A DNA stretch of 64,000 nt from Octopus vulgaris (Eukaryota): contig OX597829.1 of assembly GCA_951406725.2 (NCBI GenBank), positions 3,472,001 to 3,536,000 on the forward strand. Direction: 5' to 3'. A program made the position numbers. Below are positions 18,201 to 39,900 of this stretch, one piece after another. How positions within the stretch are numbered: position 1 is the stretch's first letter; each line of letters begins with the position of its first letter.

Positions 18201-21200
18201 TTAAATATAGCAATTTATTTGGATCTGTTTCAATATTTGCAGCAGCACTAAGCTCCCCAAACATGTCCATACAATCTTAAAGGGAGAACCATAGAAACAC
18301 CAACAGTAATTAAGATAGAATAGTCAGGTTTCATTTGATTATAAATCTCTTTAATCAATCCTGAAACAATTTAACCCTTTAGCATCCAAATTACATTGCT
18401 AAATGTATTGCTTAGACATGATATTTTAAGGTAGATGTGAAAGGCTAGATCTGGTTAGTTTAAACATAAAAAAAGGGTAGAATATTTGGTCTTGAAGGTA
18501 GGAAGGTAGGATTAAATATTATGGGGCTAAACCACTCAATTACGTCATAATGTTGGTTGTATAAATACAACCAATATATATATATATATATATGCACTTT
18601 TGACAAGTTGTGGTGCACCTGAGCACTGTATACAATAATTTCATTATTATTAATTTTTTTATATTGGTAAATTGCTACAAAAATAGATAAATTTTAAAGG
18701 TTACTCATTCTTTTATTAATTCTGAGTTTTAAAAAAGAACATATTTTAGTAGATACCTTTTTACCCTCATTTCCTACTGGGGTAGCCAAGTATTCCTTCT
18801 ACAGCAAGACTTATCTCTATGCCTCAATTATACTTTAACCACTCAACTGGTACAAACCCAGCTCCCTCAGTACTGCTTTCTCTCCCACTTGAAAGGTCTT
18901 TGTTTTGCAAGTTACTTGGTGACCCTGTTGTTGGTCGCATGTAAAAAGCACCCAGTACGCTCCAGCCACAGAAACCTTACCAAAGCAGACAATGAAGCCT
19001 ACTGCAACTCTCTGGCTTGCAAGCTCTAGTCAAACTGTCCAACCCATGCCAACAAAGAAGATAGACATTAAATGATAATTATTCTTCCATCCCTTGTTAA
19101 CCAAAGCAAGTTATAATGAAAGCTCTTTATCTTCTTTTTTTTGTCCAGTTCTTTTTCTCAGTATTTATATTTTCTAATATTATTTTTTAAATTCCAAAAT
19201 CAAAATTTGGTGTTTAAAATTTATATAATTCCTTCAATTTTCTTTTGAAGCTATCTCCTGTTGAGCGGTATGCTGTCCTTTTCTTGGAAACCCAAATGGA
19301 ACCATTCTGTAGTGAGGAGCTTCAGATGGCAGAAGTAAGTAAAATTAATTTTTAAAGCCTGAGTTTGTTTGCATGCATTTGTGTATTTATTTCTTTGATG
19401 TTTACCTTTAAAACGTTTTCATTTTCTTGTCATAAAATTTAAAAGAGTTAATTAAAATATTTTTTTGTGTGATTAATATACAGTTGTAATTGAAGTAAAA
19501 ATTTAACAAAGATAAAATTGACTAATTAAGAATGTGTGCATTTTGTTTTGTAGGAAGATATTGAGAGTGCTAAAAAAGACTGGGAGTTGGCACGACTCAA
19601 ATCTCTGAAAGAAGAGGAAGAAATAAGAGCTGAATTAGAAGAAGATGAGATGCTGTTTACATATACAAGGGATGATGCATATAATCAGGTGAAAAAATCT
19701 AAGTCTAAAAAGAATTCTGGTAACAAAAGCAATAAGAAAAAGAGTAATTATAAGAATTTTAATAGTAGGCAAAACTCTTCTGATGAAAAGATAACTTCTA
19801 GCCGTAAGAGTTCTCGAAGATCTGCTGCTAGCTCAGACATTGCTAAATCTCGGAGCAATGGACTAAGTAGCTCTAGAAAGTCACTCATTAATAATAATGA
19901 AAAAGATGAAAACAGTTCAAGTCGGGGTGGGAAAATGAAGGGCATTAATTCCGTAAGATCTGAACACTCTTCACCAGTAAACACTGGTATGTTGAAGCAT
20001 GCTCTTAAGAAGGATGTTTCAAAGATTCCATCCAATCCTAGTACCCAAAACAAGGCTACTTCAAATCAAAAAGTGCTAAATCTTAATTCCATTTCCAGTA
20101 AGAACACTAATTCTGTAATTAACACCAAAACATCTGCTTCTAGTACTGTTGGCAATCAAAAGTTGGTAGGGTCTAAAAGAGCTAAAAAAGGAGTTGGGGC
20201 TAAAAAGAAGGTAGGCGGTCCTGGTAGAAAACCGGTTGGTTCAGGCAAAAAAGGTGCTGGGTCTAAGAAATCCAATACCAAAAAGGCTAACTCTAACAAA
20301 GTTGCATCTACTAAGAAGTTATCAGGTGGTGTAATATCTAAAAAATCAGCTGCTACATCAACAGTTGGTACATCCACTACTAGTACTACTACTAGCAAGA
20401 AAGGGTCACAGGTAAATTCTGTTAAAAAAATTAAAGTGAATTCAAAGAAACTGCTTAGAGCTACCCTAATAGCTCAGGAGAAACTAGCTGCTGATTTACA
20501 GGTAGCGGCCACTACGGCTGCTTCAACACCTGTTCCAGTTTCTTCTGCTAGGATATTAGAAACGGCCATAAAAGTTTCAGAACATGTGAAAGTAGAGTCG
20601 AAATCAACCAGCAAACTACCAACCAATACAACCGTAAAAGTGTTGTCAGCAGCGGCAAAAACTACTCATACCTTATCAGTTAGCACATCCACTCAAATGG
20701 CTTGTGCATCACCTGTTAGCACCTCTGTCACACGTGTTTTGCCTGTGACTTCCACTGGAACTTCTGTTCCACATATTGTTCCAGTCAGTGCAGCTACATG
20801 CATTGTATCTGGATCAACAGCTGCTCGTGTCTGGACAACCTTAGCTCAAAAAGTACCAATTGGTCATATGATGCCAATCAGAGCTTTAGGACAAAAAATA
20901 CAGGTGCCAATGTCGGCTTTAACTCAAAAAGTACCTGTCAATACTATCACTCAAAAAGTACCTATTTCAACTATAACTCAAGTTCCTGTGTCTGCTATTA
21001 CCCAAGTTCCTATTAGTAGTATCACTCAAGTACCTGTCTCTGCTATATCTCAGAAGAAGGTACCTGTGTCCACTATAACTCATGTCCCTGTGTCTGCTAT
21101 TACACAGAAAATACCTGGAACTGCTGTTACTCAAGTCCCCATTACAGCAATCACACAGAAGGTTCCTATTAAAACCTATTCCCAAAAGGTTCCTGTCACT

Positions 21201-36900: not shown

Positions 36901-39900
36901 AAACGACAGCCTCCGCTAAGGCAGACTACCAACCAAGGGCAGAAGAATCCTAAACACACATCTGTGCTTCAGAGCAGCGGTATTAACTATGATTTACCAT
37001 TGGATCCAGTTCAAGTTGCTTTGATCAGAGCAGAGAGGATTCAACGAGAGAAGAAGCAGAACCAAGCTGCTGCAGCCGCTGCTGTAAGTTTTCTTGTTGT
37101 TCACTTTGGTTGTTGTTATTGTTTGTATTGGTTTGAATGCTACATTTTATAGTGCAACTAGTATTTGGGTGAATGGTGTTTGTTACAGTTCATTTTGTGA
37201 CTGCGATGGTTTTGTTAAGCAGTGTCGATTTTAATAATTTTGTAATTAATAATAATAGTATTACGGAGATGTACTTGCATAGCAAGTGATTTAATCTGAG
37301 ATCGTGTGCTGGAACAAAAACAATTGCAGCGTGGAAGGTGTTTATAAGCCATTTAAGAAACACAAATTTAATTTGTCAAAATATTTTCGTCGCTTTGAGA
37401 CCACGACCTGTTCACTGACAAAACTTCGTGCAGGTCGCGGTCTGAAAGTGATGAAAATATTTTGACAAATTAAATTTAAATGTTGAAGTGAATCGAACGG
37501 TTTTTGTGTGTTTCTTAAATGGCTTATAAACACCTTCCACACTGCAATAATAGTATTTTATAAGCTTAAAGCTTATAGGTGATCACTGCACAATGACTAA
37601 AGAAGATAGCCTAATAATGAGGCTTATAAGCCCTCCACAGAAAAAGTAGGTTTACCTGTACACCTGGGTTTCAAAACCACCCCTCTTTGTTTACACGACC
37701 AAGTGTGCTATGGTTACCCTAACACACAAACCTACTTCTTTCTGTCAGATTTAAGAACTATAATTAGTTTATAGTTGTTTTTGTAAACAAACTTTCATAT
37801 ATTTATAAATGTATCAACCTCTATCTACACATTCAAATTTTGAATTCTAACTTTTCATGGAATGTTTCAATCCTCTTCAATTATTTAATTTTTTCACTCA
37901 TATTCGGTGTATCACCATGGCTTGATATACTGGTCTTTTCTTATAAATGCTGTGCTTGATATTGGAATTCAGAATTTGAAAGTGTAGATAGAGGTTGACA
38001 CACTATTCTTGCTGGTCTCCACACATGTAAGCCCAAAGGTAGGTTATTTTGTGTCAATTTGTATCTACAGGAATGTTCTCCAGAAGAGAAGAATGGAACC
38101 ATTAGGTTCCTAACTTCAAAATTGCAATAGAGAATTAACCTTTTATTTTAAAATTTTGAATGCTATGTCACGTTGCTTGCTGACAGCTTTCTGAGGAGAT
38201 AGAATATGAGTGTTAATAGTGGCTTTATGGTGGCTTTGAATGCAATTTCTAGACATCTTGTGTCTGTGTGTGCATCCATTATAGATTGTGATTTATTCAT
38301 AATTATATACACCTCATATATATATATATATCATGCTAACATGGAAAACGAACGTTAAACGATGATGATGATGATATAACTCCAAGAAAGTTAGGGGTTG
38401 TAAATCCAACCCACTAAGGGATAATATCTATCTAATATACTGCTGGTAGAATACCCAATTATTAATACACAAGTGTTGTTTAATAAATAAATAAGTTAAC
38501 ATAATTTAATGTCCAAATGTTGATGAACCACCTGTTGTTCTCCTCCATTTTCTTATTTGCTATATCATCATCATCATCATCATTTAGCGTCCGTTTTCCA
38601 TGCTAGCATGGGTTGGACGGTTCAACTGGGGTCTGGGGAGCCCGAAGGCTGCACCAGGCCAGTCAGATCTGGCAGTGTTTCTACAGCTCGATGCCCTTCC
38701 TAACGCCAACCACTCCGAGAGTGTAGTGGGTGATTTTATGTGCCACCGACACAGGTGCCAGACGAGGCTGGCGAATGGCCACGCTCGGATGGTGTTTTTA
38801 TGTGCCACCAACACAGGTGCCAGATGAGGCTGGCAGACGGCCACGCTCGGATGGTGTTTTTATGTGCCACCGACACACGGTGCCAGATGAGGCTGGCGAA
38901 CGGCCACGATCGGATGGTGTTTGTTACGTGCCCACAGCACGGAGGCCAGTCGATGCGGTACTGGCTACGGCCACGTTCGGATGGTTTTCTTGTGTGCCAC
39001 CGGCACTAGTACCACAAAGATACAAATTCCATTGATGTTCATCTATTTTGATTTGTTTTGATTTGAGGTGTATATAATTATGAATAAATCACAATCTATA
39101 ATGGAGAGGGTTGCAAAAACCCTTAGGATATATATATATATATATACACATACACACACACACATATATAGAAGGTGCAGGCGTGGCTGTGTGGTAAGTA
39201 GCTTGCTTACCAACCACATGATTCCAGGTTCAGTCCCACTGCATTACACTTTGGGCAAGTGTCTTCTACTATATTCTCAGGCCAACCAAAGCCTTGTGAG
39301 TGGATTTGGTAGACGGAAACTGGAAGAAACCCGTCATCTATATATATGTGTGCGTGTTTGTGATTGTCCCCTCACCATTGCTTGAGAACCAATGCTGGTG
39401 TATTTACGACCCCGTAACTTAGCAATTTAGCAAAAGAGACTGGTAGAATAAGTTCTAGGTTTACAAAGAATAATTTCTGGGAGCGATTTGTTCAACTAAA
39501 GACGCTGCTCCAGCATGGCCACAGTCAAATGACTGAAACAAATAAAAGAATATATATATATATATATTTATACTTATATATATATTTTGATATATATATA
39601 TTTATAAATAGAAATAATATATTTTCTAAATCTCTCAGATTTATTCAGTAGTAACACAATAAAGTGGTGGTATGCTGTCAACTTAATGTGACAGTCCCAT
39701 GAAAGGGAATAATACTACTGCTATTTAACCCTAGGAAGCAGCACCACTTCCTGTCGGCCTTGACATATTTACTGTGTCCTTATGTTTACAAAGGGGAGGA
39801 GATAAGCACCCCCACCCAGCTAGTGTGTTTGTGTGTGTGTCTGTGTGTGTGCATATCTTTGTCCATTCAATTGATGTTTTGTTGGTATCGATGCAGCATG

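Follow-up and report, generated by a model that had tools for sequence, protein, structure and literature searches.

A probable two-ended fork in the domino gene of Octopus vulgaris and its counterparts in other animals

The 64,000-nucleotide stretch of Octopus vulgaris DNA analysed here (contig OX597829.1, positions 3,472,001 to 3,536,000, forward strand; hereafter the window) is very likely to belong to a single domino gene, encoding a SWR1/EP400-type Snf2 ATPase, in which a composite-exon fork leads to two alternative C-termini. The exon at 19554-19688 would serve as a composite internal/terminal exon. With its donor unused, translation would continue for 835 codons, along a basic, repeat-rich and domain-less tail, to the stop at 22196, yielding a DOM-B-like protein of 2604 residues; with the donor used, the exon would be joined in phase 0 to a microexon, or possibly directly to the exon at 34525, and from there to WAPPTPP, SANT and polyglutamine (polyQ) exons spread over more than 25 kb, yielding a DOM-A/EP400-like protein. 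By homology with the fly, these proteins would seed SWR1-like H2A.Z-exchange and TIP60/NuA4-like acetyltransferase complexes, respectively. The DOM-A/DOM-B-like architecture, already proposed in a first-pass annotation of the same sequence, is upheld by the public annotation of the SANT-less form, by the colinearity of the spliced exons with SANT-type proteins and by the alignment of an Ostrea edulis protein with human EP400. In itself, the octopus locus is an unremarkable orthologue, already annotated in part, the value of which lies in a codon-precise fork outside arthropods and in a conserved motif of the read-through tail.

Gene identity, fork exon and read-through branch

The 880-residue frame at 19554-22196 is 100% identical over its full length to the C-terminus of P0006, the NCBI entry 'helicase domino-like [Octopus vulgaris]' (2604 residues), and ends at the same stop, which also confirms the cephalopod origin that had been guessed from the DNA. 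The read-through, DOM-B-like form is the existing public gene model, with its last exon at 19554-22193. The 13 upstream stretches before the fork exon reproduce residues 915-1724 of P0006 (exact in the exon-wise comparison, 97-100% identity by tblastn) and, together with the full-length identity, indicate that the window comprises the 3' two-thirds of the O. vulgaris domino locus; the 5' part of the gene, with the HSA domain and the N-lobe, falls outside it. The precomputed domains of P0006 are PF00176, PF07529 and PF00271. In a Pfam scan of 31 + 20 open reading frames (ORFs) of the window, both strands included, Helicase_C (ORF 11421-11690; expectation value (E) 1.6e-6, score 28.8 bits, cut-off 23.5) was the only family above its cut-off; the read-through tail, the ORFs in introns and those on the minus strand contained none. 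Both the domains and the best named matches place the gene, as far as sequence can tell, in the domino/SRCAP/EP400 orthogroup of Snf2 ATPases: 30 of the 34 matches of the pre-fork exon are named (25 as helicase domino or SRCAP(-like), five as 'hypothetical'), and the PDB matches are EP400 and SRCAP.

The shared part and the read-through branch comprise the following features, in which, as throughout the text, a caret marks an exon boundary.

631..19334, + strand: shared upstream exons of domino, approximately residues 915-1724 of P0006, including the Helicase_C lobe
19554..19688, + strand: last shared exon, 45 residues, EDIESAKKDWEL...LFTYTRDDAYNQ, with acceptor ...ttttgtag^GAAGAT at 19553/19554, ending in phase 0
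19689..19694, + strand: switch donor GTGAAA (CAG^GTGAAA at 19688/19689), Val-Lys when unspliced
19689..22196, + strand: read-through tail, 835 residues, stop TGA at 22194-22196, identical to the C-terminus of P0006
20920..21606, + strand: in-frame tandem repeats with periods of 24, 27 and 54 nucleotides, forming units of about nine residues such as ITQKVPVS and LQQKLPVSV
21858..21902, + strand: conserved tail motif PWSNPNLVIRTRRAS, shared with the Batillaria, Lingula and Gryllus read-through proteins and with P0002-P0005
23094..23099, + strand: candidate poly(A) signal AATAAA from a pattern search, the first past the read-through stop (the next lies at 23452)

From 19554 the fork exon translates to EDIESAKKDWELARLKSLKEEEEIRAELEEDEMLFTYTRDDAYNQ, ending in ...YTRDDAYNQ, and it can be aligned with residues ~2190-2230 of human EP400 (E 4e-4 to 7e-3). 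The donor that follows lies exactly where the first-pass annotation had placed it, at 19688/19689, although its description there as weak and non-consensus was overstated. Seven of its nine positions fit MAG^GTRAGT, a score shared with three constitutive donors of domino (CAG^GTAAAA twice and GAG^GTAAAT once) and exceeding those of five other donors of the same gene. The distinctive trait of the switch donor is that it is also coding, GTG AAA being read as Val-Lys in the long form. Splicing at this site would compete with cleavage and polyadenylation past the read-through stop, and the short mRNA presumably ends at a poly(A) site in otherwise intronic sequence, for which candidates are available from 23094 onwards.

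The unbroken, SANT-less frame of 835 codons to the stop at 22196 that had been described earlier is indeed present, and neither SANT nor any other Pfam family was found in the 880 residues; the last shared exon is thus contiguous with a SANT-less and domain-less C-terminus of the DOM-B type. The tail opens with the basic sequence VKKSKSKK... and is of low complexity. Measured from stop to stop, the 880-residue frame is the longest of the 7,636 ORFs in six frames (next longest, 200 residues; mean, 15.8; median, 10), and at the roughly 0.06 stops per codon that follow from these statistics 835 open codons past the donor are not a chance occurrence. The G+C content of the frame is coding-like, at 0.41 in 20001-22000 compared with 0.28-0.32 on either side.

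That the read-through frame might be a retained intron or an annotation artefact devoid of protein function is extremely improbable. Such a reading would account for the low complexity of the tail, its lack of a Pfam domain, its lineage-specific repeats and its failure to match anything in the PDB or the ESM Atlas (where residues 1-140 of P0001 gave no usable match), but it is at odds with 835 open codons in a sequence where ORFs average 16, with repeat periods that are all multiples of three, with the occurrence of PWSNPNLVIRTRRAS in a gastropod, a brachiopod and a cricket and, among the matches listed below, with frames that remain open past the same codon in 100 representative proteins and not in EP400-like ones. 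A translated read-through tail is therefore preferred.

The spliced branch

For the spliced branch, the window was searched exon by exon or as a contiguous genomic frame, and database proteins were used for comparisons across junctions. The predicted exons and candidates are as follows; percentages are tblastn identities.

29046..29081, + strand: microexon of 36 nucleotides, VYVCDIDHEPMP, bounded by ag^GTC...CCT^gtaagt, phase 0 to 0
34525..34681, + strand: first large spliced-branch exon, MWAPPTPPQDDNDVYIDQ...KIETVT, ending in phase 1; 61-81% with five SANT-type proteins
35811..36040, + strand: spliced-branch exon RKQKQRKEEQLRVPRSLFDRP...EWLIHEDWALLQ, with boundaries read from the sequence; 54-65%
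36411..36638, + strand: SANT/Myb-like exon containing NWELVADVVNCCSRNYRSPKQCKNRYENIIIPREEG; 72-78%, with a weak Pfam Myb/SANT match
36790..37083, + strand: post-SANT exon TKNNRPIKTSQLY...RIQREKKQNQAAAAAA, ending in GCT^gtaagt; 59-63%
39897..40150, + strand: weak, composition-based candidate polyQ exon containing QQQQQSQQQQQQQQQRQQQQQQQQ, from an ORF and an acceptor only
48812..49018, + strand: spliced-branch exon QTGLLQK...TFAAFNKHISQ..., 207 nucleotides, phase 0 to 0, from tblastn
54422..54817, + strand: ORF with a candidate Q-rich exon, from composition only
59087..59431, + strand: ORF with a candidate polyQ exon (acceptor ~59155, donor ~59425), from composition only

SANT-type proteins of Liolophura, Ostrea, Lineus, Potamilus and Pinctada give colinear tblastn matches, first to the shared exons and then to the blocks at 34525-34683, ~35807-36040, 36402-36640 and 36787-37065, with 54-81% identity. 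The microexon is homologous to VFLSDIDQEKMP and to similar peptides in annotated SANT-type proteins, and the exon at 34525 opens with MWAPPTPPQDDND in phase 0; the block at 34525-34681 is also present in human EP400. The in-phase join to the microexon at 29046 and then to PPTPP and SANT exons, as originally proposed, therefore agrees with both the phases and the homology. Since the microexon and the exon at 34525 are both in phase 0, inclusion and skipping of the microexon would each preserve the frame, and use of the microexon in octopus may constitute another alternative event nested within the first. In isoform X5 of Magallana gigas (P0030), ...AYNQ passes straight onto MWAPPTPP and the microexon of 12 residues is skipped.

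The ORF around 36411-36638 matches Myb/SANT with E ~7e-4 and 19.9-20.3 bits, under the Pfam cut-offs of 22.9-27. Further downstream, the exon at 48812-49018 resembles the tail of the chiton protein P0019 (50% identity, E 2e-5 to 6e-6) and that of the oyster protein P0041 (E 1e-3 to 3e-3), while a PDB search with 48806-49045 gave no match. The polyQ exons expected from the first-pass annotation find counterparts in polyQ frames near 39.9, 54.4 and 59.1 kb, recognized by composition only. Its placement of the end of the feature at 37083 coincides with an exon end, GCT^gtaagt, and the branch itself continues to at least ~59.4 kb; the donor near 59425 implies that it goes on beyond the ORF at 59087-59431, and no stop of the spliced branch was found within the window. 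Judged by these matches, C-terminal blocks of the DOM-A/EP400 type (WxPPTPP, SANT and Q-rich) lie downstream of the ATPase, and homology, exon conservation and splice-site logic support a spliced octopus isoform.

Alternatively, the octopus promoter could produce the read-through form only, the SANT/polyQ exons being a separate, ATPase-less, Eaf1-like unit or one since detached from the ATPase. Octopus is represented among the 34 relatives with the pre-fork exon by the read-through form alone, and the ~12 kb between the read-through stop and the exon at 34525 would provide room for a promoter. Nevertheless, the phase of the donor fits both the microexon and the exon at 34525, the microexon is conserved with its counterparts in proteins where it is joined to the ATPase, the joined form occurs in eleven named species, and the Met that opens the exon at 34525 is Leu or Thr elsewhere and hence not a conserved start. 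A separate unit is accordingly regarded as improbable, and splicing from the fork donor is retained as the preferred reading.

A few observations concern details of this region. An alternative in-frame acceptor at 35792/35793, 18 nucleotides upstream of 35811, would add six residues, the downstream one fitting the oyster protein better. Sub-threshold matches of FAM176, SLATT_6 and Ctr on the polyQ ORFs were taken as noise. A G+C-rich tandem repeat of 62 nucleotides (4.4 copies, 38729-39006) lies in a spliced-branch intron and produces overlapping ORFs in several frames; that at 38727-39032 has no Pfam match.

The fork in other animals

When the last 80 residues before the fork were used as a query, 34 proteins were returned, all of them retaining the fork exon. 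Twenty-nine of them are SANT-type, with the form ...NQ^V(F/Y).SD...MP^(M/L/T)W.PPTPP, and originate from Lineus, Mytilus, Ostrea, Crassostrea/Magallana, Pinctada, Potamilus, Liolophura and Lottia. Twenty-seven share the NQ^V reading ahead of the microexon, and exceptions are found in Lineus P0011 (NQ^YF...), Lottia P0042 (shorter junction) and P0030 (microexon skipped). The other five are of the read-through type, ...NQ^VKK..., and belong to Octopus, Sinanodonta, Mytilus galloprovincialis (one model) and Lingula, with P0003 as the fifth. Searches seeded with the tail added Biomphalaria, Batillaria, Plakobranchus and Gryllus bimaculatus (...REDSQNQ^VVSN...) together with four further fragments, bringing read-through at the same codon to eight named species, namely Octopus, five other molluscs, Lingula and Gryllus. 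Two annotations from M. galloprovincialis are identical at 929 of 936 positions up to ...EDAFNQV, beyond which one follows the read-through and the other the SANT type; accordingly, one mollusc gene has both ends in public data.

The donor position, for which comparison with other molluscs had been suggested, thus falls at the same codon in the aligned proteins of the named molluscs and also in those of a brachiopod, a nemertean and a cricket. The remark that annotation pipelines may miss one isoform also fits the findings: only the read-through form was found for Octopus, and the 18 clusters P0024-P0041, of which every named one is a Crassostrea/Magallana isoform, are all SANT-type.

The tails of Octopus, Batillaria, Lingula and Gryllus share a motif of the form (P/S)(W/Y)SNPNLVIRTRRAS, the core of which is also written NPNLVIRTRRAS; it was not found in the four other named read-through proteins. 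The repeats at 20920-21606 lengthen the octopus tail, the tails of its relatives often measuring only 240-330 residues (Lingula, Gryllus, P0002).

Of the 159 proteins aligned, 157 have Val directly after the junction, as expected if GT is kept at this place; in SANT-type proteins the Val is contributed by the microexon. Lophotrochozoan tails begin with VKK, and many arthropod-like tails with VS or VN. As read from the protein sequences, a VKK start forces GTNAAR at the donor, thereby barring the consensus G at position +5; in one lineage but not the other, the donor may be held below its optimum by this coding constraint.

A wider sample was obtained with a profile of five read-through fragments (A2), searched against 1.84 billion representative proteins; an earlier profile (A1), which included two full-length proteins, was dropped because the helicase would dominate its 2522 positions. 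Of the 200 matches with E <=1e-3 from the A2 search, 150 were listed, among them 143 new ones; the pre-fork exon is present in 142 of the 143, and 121 are alignable at the junction. Most of these matches are ORF calls on genomic contigs and reveal an open frame, not the isoform made. Among the matches listed, 87 of the 121 read Q^V (median tail length 433 residues, at least 100 in 80 of them), 29 of these 87 carrying the tail motif, and a further 13 read K^V, all with tails of at least 100 residues (median 223), so that 93 of these 100 open frames extend for at least 100 residues. Three of the 121 listed are spliced SANT-type proteins. The remaining 18 read AYNM^V (exon end ...LFTYTREDAYNM^V); what follows is unrelated in sequence and stays open for a median of 21 codons, with just one of those listed reaching 100 residues.

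The full-length model P0184, which contains the AYNM exon, scores 1544 bits against human EP400 and 233 against SRCAP, whereas the K^V protein P0155 is closer to human SRCAP (E 1.1e-32) than to EP400 (1.6e-11). P0184 is a chimeric gene model with PUS1-like, EP400-like and NOC4-like parts, and is useful only as a label for the AYNM group. The tails of the SRCAP-like P0098, P0138, P0142, P0155, P0165, P0180 and P0185 end with (I/G)SSRTR.R and HKYPTR(H/L/Q)(K/R); these blocks, including the C-terminal motif of P0155, found no match to human SRCAP among PDB sequences. Of 103 distinct read-through tails, 27 contain an AT-hook-like core, compared with none of 14 SANT-type tails.

In P0065 and P0146, a read-through-like segment with an LVIRTRR motif is fused in frame to W.PPTPP/SANT; these two gene models represent either artefacts of prediction or, in some taxa, a third class of isoform. 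They would be compatible with a read-through segment that is not terminal and is spliced from an internal donor on to the SANT branch, giving one long protein. For the octopus gene this is very improbable, given that the NCBI model stops at 22196, that the read-through proteins of seven other named species lack the SANT branch and that fusions of this kind are favoured by ab initio predictors. Two mutually alternative ends remain the preferred reading for octopus.

Relation to fly domino, EP400 and SRCAP

In Drosophila, DOM-A and DOM-B share 2008 residues and differ only in their C-termini, one with SANT and polyQ and the other unstructured, and they define separate NuA4-like and SWR1-like complexes (PMC7239659). 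Alternative C-termini also occur in the orthologues of bee, wasp, ant, beetle and spider, so that arthropods at large may use this mode; in the digest of Scacchetti et al. (2020), it is presented as convergent with mammals and yeast and with vertebrate gene duplication (PMC7239659). The available text of a 2025 review (PMC12220344) and of a 2024 preprint (10.1101/2024.07.30.605802) gives the fly picture only, and full-text literature searches returned no paper on such a fork in non-arthropods, although the 2021 review by Scacchetti and Becker and supplementary file 3 of the eLife article may cover more.

The octopus gene resembles Drosophila domino in that one gene, with a shared HSA domain and split ATPase, would acquire a SANT/polyQ or a SANT-less end by alternative processing (PMC7239659), and it differs in its tail of 835 residues, inflated by repeats of nine residues. 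Among insects, the likeness extends to Gryllus, the only named one, the read-through protein of which forks at the octopus codon and carries the RTRRAS motif. Yeast Swr1 and Eaf1, an H2A.Z-exchange ATPase and an HSA/SANT scaffold of NuA4, divide the labour in the same manner (PMC7239659) but are encoded by separate genes, with no isoform switch.

As regards EP400, a stretch of 480 residues across the fork in the SANT-type protein of Ostrea edulis aligns with residues 2121-2538 of the human protein (E 2.7e-111), running through the microexon region, WxPPTPP, SANT and the post-SANT blocks, and EP400-like genomic fragments end an exon at the octopus fork codon. EP400 differs in that, among the matches listed, the frame of these fragments closes after a median of 21 codons with no read-through tail, and in that the human protein is without a stretch of 19 residues present at the end of the SANT exon in the oyster. 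SRCAP is the functional counterpart of DOM-B (bioRxiv 10.1101/2024.07.30.605802). The human protein aligns with that of Ostrea edulis only as far as residue 2361, in the first half of the pre-fork exon, the SANT branch being excluded, and SRCAP-like fragments read through the fork codon.

EP400-like frames that close and SRCAP-like frames that stay open form the pattern predicted for an ancestral two-ended gene of which each paralogue kept one end. Together with the shared fork codon, this behaviour of the fragments favours an old switch that was later fixed by duplication. It is possible, with confidence falling slightly short of even, that a single ancestral bilaterian switch at the phase-0 codon ...AYNQ^V..., and not an arthropod invention convergent on the vertebrate arrangement, underlies all these cases, that vertebrate EP400 (donor and SANT kept) and SRCAP (read-through kept) are its isoforms fixed by duplication and reciprocal loss, and that an ancient tail motif, (P/S)(W/Y/F)SNPNLVIRTRRAS, helps to specify the SWR1-type complex. 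The first-pass annotation had likewise suggested an ancestral switch; the common codon across phyla and the fragments fit the duplication model, while the octopus tail shows no detectable similarity to human SRCAP.

Several points weigh against the proposed switch or its ancestry. Since the switch donor is no weaker than constitutive ones, donor weakness fails to explain the choice between the two ends, and the first AATAAA lies ~900 nucleotides past the read-through stop, making the poly(A) site only a candidate. An octopus SANT-type protein is absent from the 34 matches that share the pre-fork exon. The P0065 and P0146 fusions may mean, if not artefacts, that the two ends are not strictly exclusive everywhere. 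The A2 counts favour read-through tails by the content of the profile, and genomic ORF calls, which carry no organism names, cannot show splicing. No Drosophila sequence appeared among the search matches, leaving the fly junction (residue 2008) unaligned. At the junction itself, no alignment with human SRCAP is possible, and no read-through tail, motif or profile finds the C-terminus of SRCAP in PDB searches: the tail motif, P0003 and profile A2 gave no SRCAP match, the matches of A2 were at chance level (SidI and a restriction enzyme, E >=1), and the read-through segment of Lingula found only EP400, via the shared exon. SRCAP carries AT-hooks. Sequence comparisons detected no resemblance between the octopus tail and the part of SRCAP beyond the ATPase, nor was an AT-hook-like core found in the tail.

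Isoform-defined SWR1-like and NuA4-like complexes have so far been described for Drosophila. If the proposed ancestry is correct, what has been viewed as convergence would become a textbook case of subfunctionalization of alternative isoforms after duplication. The fork may serve as a codon-precise marker for annotating both isoforms, of which present annotations often carry one, and the tail motif as a handle on what commits the ATPase to H2A.Z exchange.

The window sequence contains no N. A second gene within it was considered, with nothing found in its favour, and at gathering thresholds Rfam gave 0 matches in the window. A tandem repeat of 46/86 nucleotides occupies 9496-9716, in an upstream intron. 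Long microsatellites of TATG, TA, AT and AC (53109-53411, 53945-54363, 22537-22855 and 51303-51375) lie in introns and just past the read-through stop, and yield spurious 'VCVYIY' ORFs of 100-180 residues.

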